Counted from the stretch's first letter, positions 877 to 60,596 are shown. The stretch: DNA of 64,000 bases from Rhodothermales bacterium (GCA_951812335.1 OX638293.1:1160731-1224730); one strand, 5' to 3'. Numbers and translations: made by a program. The notes: generated by a model from the letters alone, not told the origin.

Positions 877-2322
877 TTGTCTGTTATGACGCCGCTTGCT
901 CTGCACCCGGATCGGTATTTCGACCCGAGTACGCGAAAGATTGCGCGGGATTTGTACGAAGGCGTCTGCGAGCTGCCGCTGGTGTGCCCGCACGGGCATG
1001 TCGATCCGGCTCTGCTTGCGCAAAACGAACGGCTTCCCGAGCCGTCCACCCTTATCGTCCGGCCCGATCATTATGTGCTGAGGATGCTCTATTCGCAGGG
1101 CGTCCCCCTGGAGGCGTTGGGTATACCCGTTGTGGACGGCGGGGAGGCGGGCAGAGCGATCGGGGGCGATCCTCCGGTCGAAACCGATCCGCGTGCTATC
1201 TGGCAACGCTTCGCCGAAAAATATCATCTGTTCCAGGGGACGCCCACCCGGTCCTGGCTCGACTACGAGTTTTATGAGACGCTCGGGATTCGAACGAAAC
1301 TGGACGACCACTCGGCAATGCGGATTTATGACGAAATCGAGGAAAAGCTGGCTACTCCGGAGTTTCTTCCGAGGGCGCTGTTCGATCGGTTCCGTATCGA
1401 GGTGCTTACGACCACAGATGGAGCCGCGGATTCCCTGAAGCATCACGAGGCAATCCGGAATGCCGACTGGAATGGCCGGGTCGTACCGTGTTTTCGGCCC
1501 GACGCACTCTTCAATATCGCTTCCCCCGATTGGCCGGCGGCCCTGAGAGAACTGGAGCGTGCAGTGGGGGAGGAAATCGGCGGCTACCGGGCATTCGTTG
1601 CTGCGCTGGAAAATCGCCGCGCATTTTTCAAGACGCTGGGCGCCGTTTCCACGGATCATGCGGTGCTGGAGCCGTATACGCACCGGCTTTCGGAGCGAGA
1701 AGCGTCCGCACTCTTCGAAGTAGCGCTGAGAGGTCTTGCGAGTGCAGAGGATCGGCAGCGGTTCGAGGCGCATATGCTGATGGAGATGGCGCGCATGAGC
1801 GTCGAAGACGGGATGACAATGCAGATTCATGCGGGATCCTTCCGAAATCACAACGAGGCGCTCATGAGGCGGTGCGGCCCGGACATGGGAGGCGATATAC
1901 CCGTACGGACCGAGTTTACCCGGAACCTGTGCGAATTGCTGAATGCATTTGGCTGCGACCGGCGATTCCGGCTTATTTTGTTCACCCTCGACGAAGCGAC
2001 GTATTCCAGAGAGTTGGCGCCGCTGGCTGGGCATTATCCCGCGCTGCGCCTCGGTCCCGCATGGTGGTTTTTCGACAGCATCGACGGGATGCGTCGATAC
2101 AGGCGCCTGATCACCGAAACGGCAGGCATCTACAACACCGCGGGGTTCAACGACGATACGCGGGCGTTTCTGTCCATTGCCGCTCGGCACGACCTGGCGC
2201 GCCGTGTGGATTGCGATTATGTAGCGCATCTGGTGGCGGAGCACCGAATCGACCTTGCCGACGGTCGCGAAATGGTCCGGGCCATGGCCGTCGATCTGGC
2301 GCGGGATGCATATGGACTATAA
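877..2322 (+). CDS. uxaC: Glucuronate (uronate) isomerase, amidohydrolase-fold type
   Basis: 481-aa ORF. The N-terminal pattern R.LY......P...PHGH......A.N..... then DHY..R.L...GV matches uronate isomerases. Its position next to a TRAP transporter fits hexuronate use. Confidence 0.8.
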   Translation: MSVMTPLALHPDRYFDPSTRKIARDLYEGVCELPLVCPHGHVDPALLAQNERLPEPSTLIVRPDHYVLRMLYSQGVPLEALGIPVVDGGEAGRAIGGDPPVETDPRAIWQRFAEKYHLFQGTPTRSWLDYEFYETLGIRTKLDDHSAMRIYDEIEEKLATPEFLPRALFDRFRIEVLTTTDGAADSLKHHEAIRNADWNGRVVPCFRPDALFNIASPDWPAALRELERAVGEEIGGYRAFVAALENRRAFFKTLGAVSTDHAVLEPYTHRLSEREASALFEVALRGLASAEDRQRFEAHMLMEMARMSVEDGMTMQIHAGSFRNHNEALMRRCGPDMGGDIPVRTEFTRNLCELLNAFGCDRRFRLILFTLDEATYSRELAPLAGHYPALRLGPAWWFFDSIDGMRRYRRLITETAGIYNTAGFNDDTRAFLSIAARHDLARRVDCDYVAHLVAEHRIDLADGREMVRAMAVDLARDAYGL

Positions 2323-2323
2323 T

Positions 2324-2342
2324 GGACTTAATCAGAGTATCC
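2324..2342 (+). repeat. Solo right terminus of the structured TIR repeat family (GGACTTAATCAGAGTATCC)
   Basis: The 19-nt string is identical to the right end of the full-length copies at 24899-24917 and 33779-33797. It starts 2 nt after the uxaC stop codon. Confidence 0.75.
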
Positions 2343-5094: not shown

Positions 5095-5170
5095 TTTACA
5101 AAAGACTCAAGCGCTTTACAAAAGACTCAATCGATTTTCAAGACGCTCAAGCACTTTACAAAATGCCATT
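5095..5170. repeat. 20-bp tandem repeat, about 3.8 units (TTTACAAAAGACTCAAGCGC)
   Basis: Units at 5095, 5115, 5135 and 5155. Units 1 and 2 differ at 3 positions and unit 3 is more diverged. An inverted TTGTAAA lies at 5181-5187. The repeat sits between two convergent genes. Confidence 0.85.
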
Positions 5171-6322: not shown

Positions 6323-6439
6323 GGATACTCTGATCAAGACCACTTCGCCCGGCACTTTACTTTCGTACGTAAAGGATGTCATGATTCCATCGTCGGAATT
6401 AACGATACTCTGATCGAAGCGGTTTTAATCAGAGTATCC
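6323..6439 (+). repeat. Structured TIR repeat family, short 117-bp variant
   Basis: Left TIR GGATACTCTGATCAAG, then the CTTTAC..GTAAAG and GATTCC..GGAATC hairpin modules, a degenerate second left end (CGATACTCTGATCGAAG), then the right TIR TTAATCAGAGTATCC. It lies in the divergent spacer before the TPR gene. Confidence 0.85.
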
Positions 6440-22379: not shown

Positions 22380-23444
22380 ATGATCGCCGATGCCGAACCG
22401 GATCACGGGCCGCCGGACGATACCGCTCGAACGGATGACCGTTTGAAACGGCCTCGCGTAGCCGTCACGCTGGGCGATCCCAATGGCATAGGACCGGAAG
22501 TCGTACTCGAGAGCGTGTGTGAAGTACACAGGTTGCGGATAGCGCAGCCCGTTGTCGTGGGGTCCGCACAGGTACTCCGTGCTCATGCTGCGCATGTGGA
22601 AAGCGGCTTGCCGGATATGCAGATCGTTGCTTCCATGCCCGACCGGATTCCGCCGAAGGGGCTGTTCGTTCTCGATATAGCGGCGGACGAACCATTCGAG
22701 CCGGTGTTCGGCAAGGTAGCCGCGGAAGCGGGCGCTCTGGCTATGCGATCGGTCGAACGCGCCGTTGCATTGTGTCTTGCGGGAAAGGTGGATGCTGTGG
22801 TGACAGCGCCTGTTCACAAGGAGGCCATTTCGATGGCCGGGTACATGCATCCGGGCCATACGGAATTCATTGCCGGGCTTGCCGGTTGCAGCCGGTACGC
22901 GATGATGATGATTGCGGAGGGATTGCGGGTTGGTCTTGTGACGGCGCATATGCCTATGCGGGATGTGCCGCATTCCGTCACGCGCGAAGCCGTGCTTGCA
23001 GGTATCCGAGTGGTGGATGCCGCGCTTCGTGCCGATTTCGGCATACGAAGCCCGAAAATTGCCGTACTGGGGCTCAATCCCCATGCCGGGGAGGGAGGCG
23101 TGCTCGGCATGGAAGAAATCGAAGTGATCGGTCCCGCTATCCATGAGGCGCAGGCTGGCGGGCTGCTTGCATCCGGGCCGCATTCTGCGGACGGCTTCTT
23201 TGGGGCAGGCGCCTGGCGCTGGTGCGATGCCGTGCTTGCCATGTACCACGATCAGGGGCTTGCGCCTTTCAAAACGCTTGCTTTCGACCACGGCGTCAAT
23301 TACACCGCGGGCCTGCCGATCGTGCGCACATCCCCGGATCACGGAACCGCATTCGATATTGCGGGTCAAGGAAAGGCGCGTTCGGGAAGTATGTTGAGCG
23401 CCATCCGTCTGGCCGTCGATATAGTGCGGTGCAGGAACAGATAG
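22380..23444 (+). CDS. pdxA: 4-hydroxythreonine-4-phosphate dehydrogenase
   Basis: Contains GDPNGIGPEV, ..VTAP..K.... and GLNPHAGEGG motifs. The ATG at 22380 lies 1 nt after the pepA stop. Confidence 0.9.
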   Translation: MIADAEPDHGPPDDTARTDDRLKRPRVAVTLGDPNGIGPEVVLESVCEVHRLRIAQPVVVGSAQVLRAHAAHVESGLPDMQIVASMPDRIPPKGLFVLDIAADEPFEPVFGKVAAEAGALAMRSVERAVALCLAGKVDAVVTAPVHKEAISMAGYMHPGHTEFIAGLAGCSRYAMMMIAEGLRVGLVTAHMPMRDVPHSVTREAVLAGIRVVDAALRADFGIRSPKIAVLGLNPHAGEGGVLGMEEIEVIGPAIHEAQAGGLLASGPHSADGFFGAGAWRWCDAVLAMYHDQGLAPFKTLAFDHGVNYTAGLPIVRTSPDHGTAFDIAGQGKARSGSMLSAIRLAVDIVRCRNR

Positions 23445-23970
23445 GATACTCTGATCAAAACCACTTCGCTCAGCGCGTCACGTTCGTGCGTACGGGACAT
23501 CATGATTGCATCGTCGAAATTTAAGGATACTCTGATCAAAACCGCTTCGCTCAGCACTTTAAGGATACTCTGACCAAAACCGCTTCGCTCAGCGCTTCAC
23601 GTTCGTGCGTAAACGACATCATGGTTCCCTCGTTGCAATTTGCAAAAAACACTGAGGTTTCGGGCATCGCGGATGTGAAGCGCCCTTCGGGAGGCTGCGA
23701 GAAGTGGGCTGGCCGCGTCATTCCTCATTGTGTGGGGCCTACCACACTGCTTCGTCATTCCTTGCCAGCCCACTTCTCGCAACCTCTGAGCTTTGCGGAC
23801 TTAATCAGAGTATCCTTCACGTTCGTATGTGACGCGCCCTTCGGGAGGCTGCGAGGGGCACGCTGGCCGCGCCATTCCTCATTATGTGGGGCCTGCCACA
23901 TTGCTTCGTTATTCCTTGCCAGCGCACCCCTCGCAAGCCTCTGAGATTCGCGGGCTTAATCAGAGTATCC
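23444..23970 (+). repeat. Compound array of the structured TIR repeat family: left module, solo left end, one full 253-bp copy, one right half
   Basis: Segments: 23444-23524 (left TIR plus hairpin modules), 23525-23562 (left end only), 23563-23815 (full copy), 23816-23970 (right half). The array starts on the last base of the pdxA stop and ends 6 nt before the ftsE ATG, so it fills the whole spacer. Confidence 0.9.
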
Positions 23971-23976
23971 TATGAC

Positions 23977-24660
23977 ATGATCCGTCTTTCCGACATATCG
24001 CTCTCTCACGTTTTGCCCGACGGCCATCGCCGTACCGTGGTCGAACACCTTGACCTGACGATCCAGCAGGGAGAAATGGCGTATCTGGTCGGTCCTACCG
24101 GAAGCGGGAAAACGACCCTGTTGCGGATGTTGTACATGGATGTGTTTCCGGATGCTGGTGTGGCGCAGATAGGCAAGTACCGTACGGATCGAATACGCCA
24201 TGCGGAAATTCCGTATTTGCGGCGCTCTCTGGGCGTTGTGTTTCAGGATTTCCAGTTGCTTTCCGATCGTACGGTGTACGAGAATGTTGCGTTTGCCATG
24301 TATGTCATCGGCAAGCGCGGCAAGGTCGTCAGGGATCGCGTTATGGAGGTGCTTTCGCAGGTGGGGTTGAGTCACAAGAAGAAGCACTTTCCCCACGAGT
24401 TGTCCGGAGGGGAACAACAGCGCGTTTCGATTGCCCGGGCCATGGTGAACGAGCCGCTGATGTTGCTGGCCGACGAACCCACCGGGAATCTGGATCCGAA
24501 TGTCGCCGACGAGATTCTTAAATTGATTGTCGGGCTTCACCGGCAGGGCATGACGGTGCTCATGGCCACGCACAATTATCGTCTGGTTAACCAATTCCCT
24601 GCCCGGACGCTGGGTTTTATGGGTAGACACATTGTGGATGTAGCCCCCGAAACCCTGTAG
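23977..24660 (+). CDS. ftsE: FtsE-like cell-division ABC ATPase
   Basis: Walker [10 protein letters not shown], signature LSGGEQQR, Walker [12 protein letters not shown], 227 aa. No ftsX follows it, so the FtsE assignment is family-level only. Confidence 0.8.
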
Positions 24661-24664
24661 ATAC

Positions 24665-24917
24665 GGATACTCTGATCAAGACCACTTTGCCCGGCACGTC
24701 ACTTTCGCGTGTAAAGGACATCATGATTGCATCGTCGGAATCAGGGGAGGCACTGCGGATTCGGGGCATCGCAGACGTGACGCGCCCTTCGGGAGGCTGC
24801 GAGGGGCACGCTGGCTGCGTCATTCCTCATTGTGCGGGGCCTGCCACACTGCTTCGTCATTCCTTGTCAGCGCATCCCTCTCAGCCTCTGAGCTTTGAGG
24901 ACTTAATCAGAGTATCC
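24665..24917 (+). repeat. Structured TIR repeat family, full-length 253-bp copy
   Basis: GGATACTCTGATCAAG ... CTTAATCAGAGTATCC with all internal modules, including CCCTTCGGG and the long hairpin at 24792-24888. It starts 4 nt after the ftsE stop. Confidence 0.9.
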
Positions 24918-25046
24918 GTATGTGCGCTCTGTCCCGAAATGCTTGCTCCGGATCATGCATGATGCGCAGGCCGTTATGTTCGGGATTGCACAGGAAGATG
25001 TGAAGAAGAGGTCATTCGTTTACTCATCCTTTATACAGGCTCGATT

Positions 25047-33543: not shown

Positions 33544-33797
33544 GGATACTCTGATCGAAACCACTTCGCCCGGCACTTTACTTTCGCGCGTAAAGGACGT
33601 CATGATTCCATCGTCGGAATCGGCTAGAAACACTGCGGATCCGGGGCGCCGCGGACGCGACGCGCCCTTCGGGAGGCTGCGAGGTGCACGCTGGCCGCGT
33701 CATTCCTCATTATGTGGGGCCTGTCGCACTGCTTCGTCATTCCTTGCCGGCGCACCCCTTGCAGCCTCTGAGTTTTGCGGACTTAATCAGAGTATCC
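33544..33797 (+). repeat. Structured TIR repeat family, full-length 254-bp copy
   Basis: It is collinear with the copies at 24665-24917 and 23563-23815 and lies in the divergent spacer upstream of the PHP gene. Confidence 0.9.
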
Positions 33798-37774: not shown

Positions 37775-37849
37775 GGTGACCGTAGCTCAGTCGGTTAGAG
37801 CGCCAGGTTGTGGCCCTGGAGGTCGTGGGTTCGATTCCCATCGGTCACC
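37775..37849 (+). tRNA. tRNA-His (anticodon GTG)
   Basis: I folded the cloverleaf by hand. The acceptor stem is 8 bp including G-1:C73 (GGTGACCG/CGGTCACC). D arm GCTC/GAGC; anticodon stem CCAGG/CCTGG with loop TTGTGGC; T arm GTGGG-TTCGATT-CCCAT. Confidence 0.9.
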
Positions 37850-37862
37850 CGCATGAGTATAT

Positions 37863-37938
37863 GCCGCGTTCGTCTAGGGGTCCAGGACGCCGGCCTTTCA
37901 CGCCGGTAACACGGGTTCAAATCCCGTACGCGGTACCA
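37863..37938 (+). tRNA. tRNA-Glu (anticodon TTC), CCA encoded
   Basis: Acceptor GCCGCGT/ACGCGGT; D arm GTC..GAC as in other tRNA-Glu; anticodon stem CCGGC/GCCGG with loop CTTTCAC; T arm ACGGG-TTCAAAT-CCCGT; then A-CCA. Confidence 0.9.
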
Positions 37939-40078: not shown

Positions 40079-40147
40079 TTTTTGAGTAAAAAATATTCCA
40101 AAAATGTATAAAAAATATACAAAAAAGGTATAGAAATTACTCAAAAA
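40079..40147. repeat. Nested inverted repeats inside a 17% G+C island
   Basis: TTTTTGAGTAA (40079-40089) and TTACTCAAAAA (40137-40147) form a perfect 11-bp inverted repeat. They enclose TGTATA-AAAAA-TATACA (40105-40121). Line 40081-40140 has 10 G+C out of 60. Confidence 0.8.
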
Positions 40148-40360
40148 AACAAAAATCGATCATTCTATCACCTTGGCCACAGGGTATTCCCTGCTGCCGA
40201 AATTCTGCGTACCTTCGATTAGCTATACCGCTGCCCAGCGGTGCGCACGTCTATCGTTTGCAGGCACAAGACAAGATCATGCTGGACATGACGACGCTCG
40301 TTAAGGGAATCGTCGCCTAACGTATCTTCTACCTGCCCGGCTTCATATTCGACCCCAAAC

Positions 40361-48513: not shown

Positions 48514-48645
48514 GGATACTCTGATTAAGTTCACTTTGATCAGCGCTTCACGTTCGTGCGTAAGAATATTATAATTGCATCGTCATATTCCTTGCCAGCG
48601 CACCCCTTTCAGCCTCTGAACTTCGCGGACTTAATCAGAGTATCC
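48514..48645 (+). repeat. Structured TIR repeat family, internally deleted 132-bp copy
   Basis: GGATACTCTGATTAAG ... CTTAATCAGAGTATCC. It keeps the left module and only the 3' arm of the long hairpin. It lies in the divergent spacer between nth and the DUF4105 gene. Confidence 0.85.
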
Positions 48646-54789: not shown

Positions 54790-54842
54790 CTGTTCAGCCG
54801 TTACTATGTCCGAGGGAATGGGCGCAATGGCATCGCGGGCGG

Positions 54843-54944
54843 AAAGCGCCCTTCGGGAGGCTGCGAGGGGTGCGCTGGCCGCGTCATCCCTTGCCAGCGC
54901 ACCCCTCGCAGCCTCTGAGTTTTACGGATTGAATCAGAGTATCC
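54843..54944 (+). repeat. Structured TIR repeat family, right half only, with near-perfect 24-bp hairpin
   Basis: ..GCGCCCTTCGGG, then arm 54856-54879 (GGAGGCTGCGAGGGGTGCGCTGGC), a 13-nt loop, arm 54893-54916, then ..GAATCAGAGTATCC. No left end is present. Confidence 0.85.
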
Positions 54945-55158: not shown

Positions 55159-55345
55159 GGATACTCTGACCAAAACCGCTTCGCTCAGCACTTCACGTTC
55201 ACACGTGAAGCGCCCTTCGGGAGTCTGAGAGAAGCACGCTGACCGCGTCATTCCTCATTGTGTGGGGCCTGCCACACTGCTTCGTCATTCCTTGCCAGCG
55301 CACTTCTTTCAGCCTCTGAGCTTTGCGGACTTAATCAGATTATCC
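55159..55345 (+). repeat. Structured TIR repeat family, 187-bp variant
   Basis: GGATACTCTGACCAAAA.., then CTTCACGT-TCAC-ACGTGAAG joined directly to GCGCCCTTCGGG and the long hairpin, ending ..CTTAATCAGATTATCC 1 nt before the ATG at 55347. Confidence 0.85.
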
Positions 55346-55346
55346 T

Positions 55347-55829
55347 ATGGATACCGTTTTCCGATACCATATCCCGGAACTCCATCCGCTTGCCGTCCAT
55401 TTTCCTATAGCGCTTCTGGCGGCGGCGGCGCTGGCTGCGATTGTCTGGATGACATGGGGCGCGCCCTTTTGGCGCCGCGTTACGTGTTTGCTCGCCATGC
55501 TGGGCATGATGGGCGCCCTTTTTGCCTGGTTTACGGGCGAGTCCATGGAGGAGCAGGCGGAAGGCGTCCCTATCGTAGACGAATTGGTAGACCTGCACGA
55601 GCAGATGGCTTTTTATGCGCTGATCGCGGCCATCCTGACTTCCGTGGCGTTGGGGTTGCTGACCTGGATCGGGCGCGTGGGCCAATCCCAGGGCAGCCGT
55701 TTTGCAGGCATGAATCCGGATCGCCTTCCCTACCGCCTCGGAGCGGGTTTTCTGGTGCTTGCCGCGGCAGCGCTGGTTGCCTGGGCCGGTCACATTGGCG
55801 CAACCATGGTGTGGGGCGTTTCCGGGTGA
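55347..55829 (+). CDS. DUF2231-like small membrane protein
   Basis: 160 aa with four hydrophobic segments. The N-terminal ..HPLAVHFPIALL.. is typical of DUF2231. Confidence 0.65.
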   Translation: MDTVFRYHIPELHPLAVHFPIALLAAAALAAIVWMTWGAPFWRRVTCLLAMLGMMGALFAWFTGESMEEQAEGVPIVDELVDLHEQMAFYALIAAILTSVALGLLTWIGRVGQSQGSRFAGMNPDRLPYRLGAGFLVLAAAALVAWAGHIGATMVWGVSG

Positions 55830-60314: not shown

Positions 60315-60596
60315 GTCGTTGCGTTTGCGATAGTATGAAAAAAACACCCCCTGGTTACATGTCCTATACGTAAGACAATACGGTATGTTACAGTCGCATT
60401 GCGATCTGCATGGCTGCGTCGTTTTCAGGATGCGCTATGCCGTGCCGTGTTCGGCGTTGCCGCAGGCCATATTTTACGGGATGATTTTTCGCAGCGAATA
60501 TACGGTTATGCAGTTGCACCCCCGGAAATATCCCACCGGAAATGTCCCGGTATCCGATCTTACCGGATTCGCAAAATGCCCAGCCCTTTAAACGCC

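Follow-up and report, generated by a model that had tools for sequence, protein, structure and literature searches.

A covarying MITE of Rhodothermales whose tolerated mismatches suggest folding of its minus strand

The ends of IS200/IS605 elements, REP/RAYT hairpins and the sso of rolling-circle plasmids act in a strand-specific way as folded ssDNA, where recognition depends on pairing and not on sequence, and where G·T is tolerated; the sso are imperfect palindromes of 150-300 nt carrying conserved unpaired motifs. MITEs are usually viewed as passive DNA recognised at its termini, whereas in the element described here the termini and three internal helices covary. In bcr1, a MITE-like repeat of ~155 bp from the Bacillus cereus group, a cruciform-like structure is preserved by compensatory base-pair changes, and stability has been lost in many copies (PMC3184786). 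Quasipalindrome mutations by template switching have been documented in E. coli (PMC7202029), and template switching both creates and maintains hairpins (PMC8794818). Selection versus templated mutation as the source of compensatory change is a live question in RNA evolution (PMC8794818).

The locus studied lies in a 64,000-nt stretch of one strand from a Rhodothermales bacterium (OX638293.1:1160731-1224730), referred to here as the window. The first-pass annotation had reported a perfectly paired hairpin at 54856-54916, and this is confirmed: both arms (54857-54879 and 54893-54915) measure 23 nt and are 100% complementary, 13 nt separate them, and a terminal G54856·T54916 brings the stem to 24 bp (23 Watson-Crick pairs plus G·T). 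Folded as RNA, the hairpin reaches -55.6 kcal/mol, with z = -9.5 against shuffles. Its stem is one helix, P3, of a ~254-nt non-coding mobile repeat, a MITE. This assignment follows from terminal inverted repeats, a 4-bp target-site duplication of the TTAA type and one clean pair of filled and empty sites. The terminal repeats are 21 nt long and begin GGATACTCTGAT. Many full copies have identical 4-bp flanks, mostly TTAA and also TACA, TTTA, CTAA, TAAA, TTCA, TGTA and TATA; since these include flanks other than TTAA, the duplication is genuine and not part of the terminus. The clean site is that of the short-form copy at 55159-55345: the window carries the insertion, and the related genome OX638295.1 (locus L010) has an empty site with a single TATG. 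Other gains and losses relative to L010 and to locus L031 are less clean. Window positions 60434-60469, also compared with L010 as a candidate empty site, were rejected, the sequence there having been replaced and not simply inserted. Element sizes range from 117 to 257 nt, and no transposase gene lies within.

A consensus fold was derived from 67 full copies, for either strand, with positions given in model coordinates. One strand of the element is predicted to fold into a multi-helix nest of P1, P2, P3 and P4. The two termini, GGATACTCTGATCAAAACC and GGACTTAATCAGAGTATCC, pair over 21 positions as P1 (1-21 with 234-254). P2 (30-39 with 113-122) encloses a variable, dispensable subdomain that is absent from short forms, and is followed by the conserved junction GCGCCCTTCGGGAG. 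P3 (129-152 with 203-226), the 24-bp stem, holds a 16x16 internal loop with two direct GTCATTCCT repeats and, beyond it, the terminal hairpin P4 (169-174 with 181-186). The junction and the internal-loop repeats are mostly 90-100% conserved, as judged from those parts of each copy set that were not used for ascertainment, both the genome and the metagenome copies having been collected by conserved motifs; P3 core, P4 and subdomain vary across copies. The GTCATTCCT repeats (model 153-168 and 187-202; for example 24816-24831 and 24850-24865) face each other across the P3 loop; they are unpaired, yet few parts of the element are better conserved. The 61-nt hairpin at 54856-54916 is a deletion derivative in which the inner hairpin P4 has been lost between direct repeats CGTCATTCCT. 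Recombination between the internal-loop direct repeats GTCATTCCT yields this 61-nt form.

The window holds nine copies or fragments, all on the + strand and each ahead of a + strand gene (Table 1). Their common orientation may be chance or a local effect, the family overall being without such a bias. For the core motif, 6 occurrences were counted in the window (1.46 expected), and for the terminal repeat 15 (0.02 expected).

Table 1. Element copies, fragments and derivatives in the window (positions counted from its first letter).
Feature	Position	Strand	Description
P3 hairpin	54856..54916	+	arms 54856-54879 and 54893-54916, 13-nt loop, P4 deleted
Truncated element	54829..54944	+	model 102-254 with inner deletion, no 5' terminal repeat, 3' end ...AATCAGAGTATCC (nhmmer)
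Short-form element, 187 nt	55159..55345	+	without variable subdomain (model 45-111); P3 55220-55317 with AAG/CTT; flanks TATA/TATG
Full-length element	23563..23815	+	P3 23690-23787, derived perfect core AAGTGGG/CCCACTT; sits within older short-form copy
Two 5' fragments	23444..23559	+	23444-23520, and 23525-23559 as the 5' portion of the copy split by 23563-23815
3' part of split short-form copy	23816..23970	+	P3 23844-23942, 1-nt bulge in 3' arm
Full-length element	24665..24917	+	between ftsE and Na:alanine symporter gene; P3 24792-24889; P2 pair G-C (CGTCAC/GTGACG)
Full-length element	33544..33797	+	divergent intergenic region; P3 33672-33769
117-nt deletion derivative	6323..6439	+	model 1-83 fused to 3' terminal repeat; no P3
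132-nt deletion derivative	48514..48645	+	model 1-71 fused to 185-254; of P3, 3' arm alone left
Solo 3' terminal-repeat remnant	2315..2342	+	GGACTTAATCAGAGTATCC

The region 23444-23970 is a nested cluster of four element pieces, a full copy within a short-form copy near a TTCA/TTAA site, preceded by another 5' fragment. Several copies adjoin coding sequence very closely: a terminal repeat contributes its first G to the pdxA stop codon TAG (23442-23444), the ATG of a candidate ftsE start (23973) lies 3 nt past the 3' terminus at 23970, and the ATG of a DUF2231 gene lies 2 nt past the 3' terminus at 55345, within the duplicated TATG (55345-55349). Upstream signals of these genes must therefore be located in the element or beyond it. 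Two AT-rich intergenic tandem repeats in the window (5095-5163, 20 nt x3.5; 40087-40148, 22 nt x2.8) bear no relation to the element.

A sibling copy had been described as keeping perfect pairing through matched changes on both arms, an observation that is confirmed with qualifications. In the copy given as 23689-23784 (P3 23690-23787) the quoted 15-nt arms are indeed perfect, but the whole arms, GAGGCTGCGAGAAGTGGGCTGGC and GCCAGCCCACTTCTCGCAACCTC, are 96% complementary, with one C·A lower down; this copy has GAGAAGTGGGCTGGC / GCCAGCCCACTTCTC. The copy at 55159-55345 does show the AAG/CTT state but contains in addition a tandem C·A/A·C and two more mismatches. Perfect stems, though present at the quoted site, are exceptional in the family: the commonest P3 form, GGGGCACGC / GCGCACCCC, carries mismatches, namely two neighbouring A·C on the + strand. 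The second long-range pair, CTTCAC...GTGAAG in some copies and CGTCAC...GTGACG in others, was confirmed; at the corresponding columns 34/123 of the 67 full copies, U-A is found in 37 and G-C in 27.

More than 200 loci carry the element across Rhodothermales MAGs and sponge metagenomes. Scanning a single genome for each species with a sequence pattern gave at least 100 genome loci, with 98 among the matches listed in eight Rhodothermales MAGs. A second scan with a different anchor gave 120 metagenome loci, mostly from the sponge metagenomes LXNJ (Petrosia ficiformis) and LXNI (Sarcotragus foetidus). With nhmmer, 176 hits were obtained in the window together with the 100 genome loci sampled, and 193 in the 120 metagenome loci. 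The window itself matches two LXNJ contigs at 97.8-99.2% identity, and the nearest reference genome, OX638295.1, at ~84-92% over aligned segments. No autonomous partner with matching termini was found in ~1.7 Mb of sampled DNA. This search considered paired termini with a spacing of 0.5-4 kb (genome loci) or 0.8-3 kb (metagenome loci), and the 17 ORFs lying between properly oriented termini were housekeeping genes (HPr kinase, enolase, a tRNA synthetase and others) or had no Pfam match, with 0 transposases. A conserved reading frame within the element is ruled out by 1-nt indels in the arms, and coding potential on the minus strand was rejected on account of these indels and of the covariation. 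At gathering thresholds of Rfam 15 the window contains no family besides two tRNAs, a permissive scan of 23400-25000 returned sub-threshold miRNA-hairpin noise only, and blastn of the element against a plasmid collection gave no match. The two tRNA genes are neighbours on the + strand (37776-37849 and 37863-37935). At one locus (L100 122-282, OZ246975.1) a 26-nt unit, CGAAGAACGCCCGCCTCGCAGCCTCC, drawn from the junction and the P3 5' arm, is present as 6.2 tandem repeats at 100% identity, a minisatellite that has arisen inside one element copy.

All four helices covary, and they do so through many non-nested events. In the 67-copy alignment 27 of 59 pairs are altered on both sides, compared with 16.0±1.8 after shuffling (0/500), and sliding the partners by 1-3 columns leaves at most 12 such pairs; cells with a double change number 185 against 63.6±5.2 expected. 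The 7-bp P3 core alone has 41 joint haplotypes in 67 copies, with at least two Watson-Crick types at each core pair. Among its fully paired forms are GGGTGCG/CGCACCC, AAGTGCG/CGCACTT, AGACGCT/AGCGTCT, GCGCGCG/CGCGCGC and AGGCGTT/AACGCCT. For phylogenetic contrasts, 40 disjoint pairs of close relatives were picked by their unpaired columns. Both-side changes within these pairs amounted to 65, of which 49 led from one Watson-Crick pair to another, where random placement of the changed columns gave 19.7±4.0 (0/5000); by helix the figures were 27 against 10.6 for P3 and 17 against 4.5 for P1. Such 'independent' contrasts may overcount events because copies exchange sequence, as described below for loci L028 and L128. 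The caveat attached to the original claim, that the paired changes might derive from just two ancestral subfamilies with no independent events, fails on the number of core haplotypes and on these contrasts. The termini covary as well, at positions 4, 5 and 7 (GGATGC/GCATCC, GGAACC/GGTTCC, GGAGAC/GTCTCC, GGATACGC/GCGTATCC), which is hard to explain by transposase binding and points to pairing of both ends within one strand.

Covariation in a palindromic repeat can have a mutational source, and the copy at 23563-23815 provides an example. It differs from its nearest relative, L032 (OX638295.1), at 4/253 positions. Three of the four form an adjacent triplet, CAC->TGG, the exact complement of its own 3' arm, by which C·A, A·C and C·C are converted into three Watson-Crick pairs. 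The next-nearest relative also has CAC, and among 117 copies TGG is confined to this insertion and its ortholog, with no donor copy seen. The comparison points to the perfect 23563 stem having probably arisen by one arm-templated mutation and not by three selected substitutions. In close pairs, runs of 2-3 adjacent changes on one arm were counted by hand as all-or-none in ~22 cases and mixed in 4. At least seven independent close-pair contrasts show a CA<->TG flip at the GCGC site of the core, and the GCGC position is a possible methylation hot spot. The most variable dinucleotide of the stem, in the P3 core (for example GCAC at 24806-24809 and GTGC at 54870-54873), is found at this GCGC position, and the common variants GTGC and GCAC are the two products that CpG deamination of GCGC would give. 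Exchange between copies is indicated by L028 4593-4847 and L128 3556-3809, whose flanks are 92% identical while the elements differ at 50/254 positions; this would mean replacement or re-insertion at an orthologous site. At another orthologous site, L099 4442-4695 and L116 2874-3126, the flanks are 90-94% identical and the elements differ at one internal position. Templated mutation and inter-copy conversion thus feed the covariation, and the strand asymmetry set out next argues for a fold-dependent filter on top of them.

An A·C mismatch of the + strand corresponds to G·U in the complementary - strand. Across the 59 pairs, + strand mismatch cells comprise 293 A·C and 35 G·U. A·C is present in at least four copies at 16 pairs and G·U at 1 (p = 2.7e-4), whereas rare mismatches, those in fewer than four copies, are symmetric (28 A·C, 30 G·U). 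The metagenome set, collected with its separate anchor, replicates the asymmetry (16 against 3). Standard pairs make up 90.1% on the + strand and 96.6% on the - strand, and the - strand has fewer non-standard pairs in P1 in 111/116 copies and in P3 in 91/116. Its predicted fold is better by a mean of 7.5 kcal/mol and in 51/67 copies; for the 24665 copy, z is -4.7 on the - strand and -2.1 on the + strand. Switches between G-C and A-U have A·C as their intermediate, which the - strand carries as G·U, and by arm combination AA/CC, AG/CC and GA/CC together account for 28 copies and GG/TT plus GG/CT for 2. Mutation bias was considered as the origin of the A·C excess and ruled out: the 113 unpaired columns contain 705 changes of the G>A and T>C types and 619 of the C>T and A>G types. 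Copies occur in both orientations with respect to GC skew and genes; tested against the local skew, orientation shows no bias (odds ratio 1.9, p = 0.16), and along OX638295.1 there is a trend only.

Some features point the other way. The opposite wobble, G·T on the + strand, occurs at 138/217, 36/116, 37/115, 149/206 and the conserved terminal pair 129/226. The conserved CCUUCGGG is predicted to form a hyperstable UUCG tetraloop on the + strand and not on the - strand, which counts against the minus-strand reading. The junction would form a cUUCGg tetraloop if + strand RNA folds and a CGAAG mini-hairpin if the - strand does, and does not settle which strand folds. Among DNA mismatches, too, G·T is the mildest, so the wobble signal fits RNA or ssDNA alike.

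Several processes could have produced these patterns. Neutral concerted evolution, in which template switching or hairpin-templated repair together with gene conversion keeps the arms complementary and the fold itself is unselected, is the strongest of the rival accounts, although we regard it as unlikely. Its mechanism is documented (PMC7202029, PMC8794818), and it accommodates the 3-nt change in the 23563 core that matches its own 3' arm, the mostly all-or-none character of the one-arm runs and the orthologous site at which the elements differ at 50/254 positions. What it does not predict is an asymmetry between element strands, given that copies lie both ways with respect to replication and genes; yet common mismatches divide 16:1 and rare ones 28:30, the unpaired columns are unbiased, arm combinations of the A·C type exceed those of the G·T type by 28:2, and many pairs switch stepwise via A·C, the minus-strand G·U, which is the classic selected route. 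The paired differences could instead be a phylogenetic artefact of two or a few ancestral subfamilies fixed once each. This might apply to P2, where pair 34/123 falls into two large classes (37 U-A, 27 G-C) that may go back to one old event, and the AA/TT state is common to several genomes. Against this, the 41 core haplotypes include at least two Watson-Crick types at all 7 core pairs, the summed lists of pair types require no fewer than 35 double substitutions even on the strictest count, and individual pairs have flipped repeatedly, in 4-6 separate contrasts between close relatives. The artefact is refuted for P1, P3 and P4 and possible for pair 34/123 alone, and as an explanation of the family as a whole we consider it the most improbable of all.

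Selection could also act on something other than a spreading single strand. Were the arms half-sites of a dimeric transposase or host factor bound to double-stranded DNA, conservation of the termini, of outer P3 (GGAGGCTGCGAG, CTGGC) and of the GTCATTCCT repeats would be expected, and all of these are highly conserved. The covarying positions, however, are those free in sequence (P3 core, P4 and terminal positions 4, 5 and 7, with up to 4 pair types), a compensating change in one half-site would not rescue binding to the other, and recognition of double-stranded DNA predicts no strand asymmetry; half-site symmetry is accordingly very improbable in our estimation. A cis-acting role in the host, with the co-transcribed hairpin serving as mRNA stabiliser, RNase site, terminator or 5'-UTR regulator, has somewhat more in its favour and is still distinctly unlikely. 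Copies are intergenic and often a few nt from stop or start codons, those in the window all lie in one orientation ahead of + strand genes, and there are precedents for MITE hairpins acting in these ways, Correia and bcr1 among them (PMC3184786). The wider sample does not bear this out: by crude gene calls, 79 contexts comprise 29 tandem sense and 18 tandem antisense (p = 0.14; earlier 17 and 10), 19 divergent and 13 convergent, and the trend towards sense runs opposite to the better-folding strand. Between 23400 and 25100 neither strand has a terminator-like site (GC-rich hairpin plus U tract), and the element contains no sigma-70 promoter-like site, in a scan of promoter types from outside the host's phylum. 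The diverged orthologous pair shows one-sided, pair-breaking changes only, rare mismatches are symmetric, and proximity to stop codons is explained by a preference for TTAA targets within a GC-rich genome.

The first-pass annotation had concluded that selection acts on a folded single strand and not on sequence alone. At the level of the family this stands, on the strength of the controls, the contrasts and an asymmetry confined to paired positions, but covariation by itself is insufficient evidence, as the templated CAC->TGG change illustrates. A folded single strand is likewise supported, but the better-pairing strand is the complement of the one that had been read (A·C against G·U, 16:1). 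The reading that we favour, and hold to be somewhat probable from sequence comparison, is that the minus-strand fold is selected during propagation, that resident copies decay neutrally and that templated mutation supplies part of the compensation. Selection on a single-stranded minus-strand form, RNA or ssDNA, would keep the pairing, and the filter would operate at propagation, such that abundant descendants come only from lineages in which the minus strand has kept its ability to fold. G·U or G·T wobble would be tolerated on the minus strand and show up on the + strand in the form of A·C. After insertion, copies would decay neutrally. Arm-templated mutation, by quasipalindrome template switching, may provide some of the compensation in one step, with the filter acting thereafter.

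The distribution of variants can be compared with this proposal of a minus-strand filter. Common variants, inherited through propagation, carry the asymmetry and rare ones do not. In the diverged orthologous copy 24665-24917, compared between the window and L179 from a 97.8%-identical strain, there are three one-sided changes: G-C->A·C, G-C->G·T and one at an unpaired position. The same strain comparison shows an extra G-to-C mismatch in the P3 arm of the partial copy 23816-23970, and the 23563 orthologous pair is identical. We infer that the data fit a filter on spreading lineages better than a host function at each locus. Against the minus-strand reading stands the expectation that an element with terminal repeats and a target duplication moves as dsDNA through a DDE transposase, for which no fold is needed. 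That spread needs a strand-specific folded intermediate, be it an ssDNA minus strand whose junction forms a CGAAG-type mini-hairpin or a structured RNA encoded by the element (guide, antisense or priming), is a tentative and rather unlikely proposal.

Mismatches tolerated in a manner that points to one strand would imply that a single-stranded stage, RNA or ssDNA, is important for spread. If this is true, the need for a folded intermediate is a mobility requirement that has not been described for DDE-type MITEs. The more than 200 sampled loci, with their graded stem states, form a natural data set for separating selection from templated mutation. They also carry a warning, that covariation in palindromic repeats is not readable as selection unless strand asymmetry or the mutation spectrum is controlled for. 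For annotation, this abundant repeat of sponge-symbiont Rhodothermales, abutting start and stop codons, will confuse gene callers and assemblers.

Set beside known systems, the element has the features of a MITE apart from an identified parent IS, and it matches no curated RNA family. Members of the IS5 group, which by ISfinder conventions duplicate 4 bp at YTAR-like targets and have termini starting GG, are a possible parent. The targets of the present element are similarly dominated by TTAA, CTAA and TTAG. The 4-bp YTAR-like target suggests IS5-group parentage as a lead, the ~1.7 Mb having contained no transposase-bearing copy with these termini. The resemblance to IS200/IS605 ends, REPs and sso concerns the mode of working only, since those lack terminal inverted repeats and target-site duplications, and REPs measure 20-40 nt; identity as a REP/BIME or an IS200/IS605 derivative, groups marked by a short GTAG-type palindrome or by subterminal hairpins, is excluded by a length of ~254 nt, the 21-nt terminal repeats and the 4-bp duplication. 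BrickBuilt of Porphyromonas gingivalis (PMC4596501) is likewise a MITE of a Bacteroidota-related lineage and contains a minisatellite, whereas in the present family the array is a single-locus derivative (L100) and not a family feature. Correia/NEMIS of Neisseria, ERIC, RUP and BOX are, like our element, short intergenic terminal-repeat MITEs with AT-rich targets, deletion or modular variants and long hairpins if transcribed (PMC3184786). Correia has other termini, another size and another target (TA), and neither Rfam nor sequence comparison links it to the present element. With bcr1 the likeness extends to interspersed, non-autonomous copies, short direct-repeat flanks and a distribution that is not conserved between related strains (PMC3184786). 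Unlike bcr1, which has a 5-bp duplication and is transcribed, the present element is ~254 nt long with four helices and a 4-bp TTAA-type duplication, and the two have no sequence relation. The strand-specific wobble signature is derived here for the present element and is not taken from the bcr1 literature.
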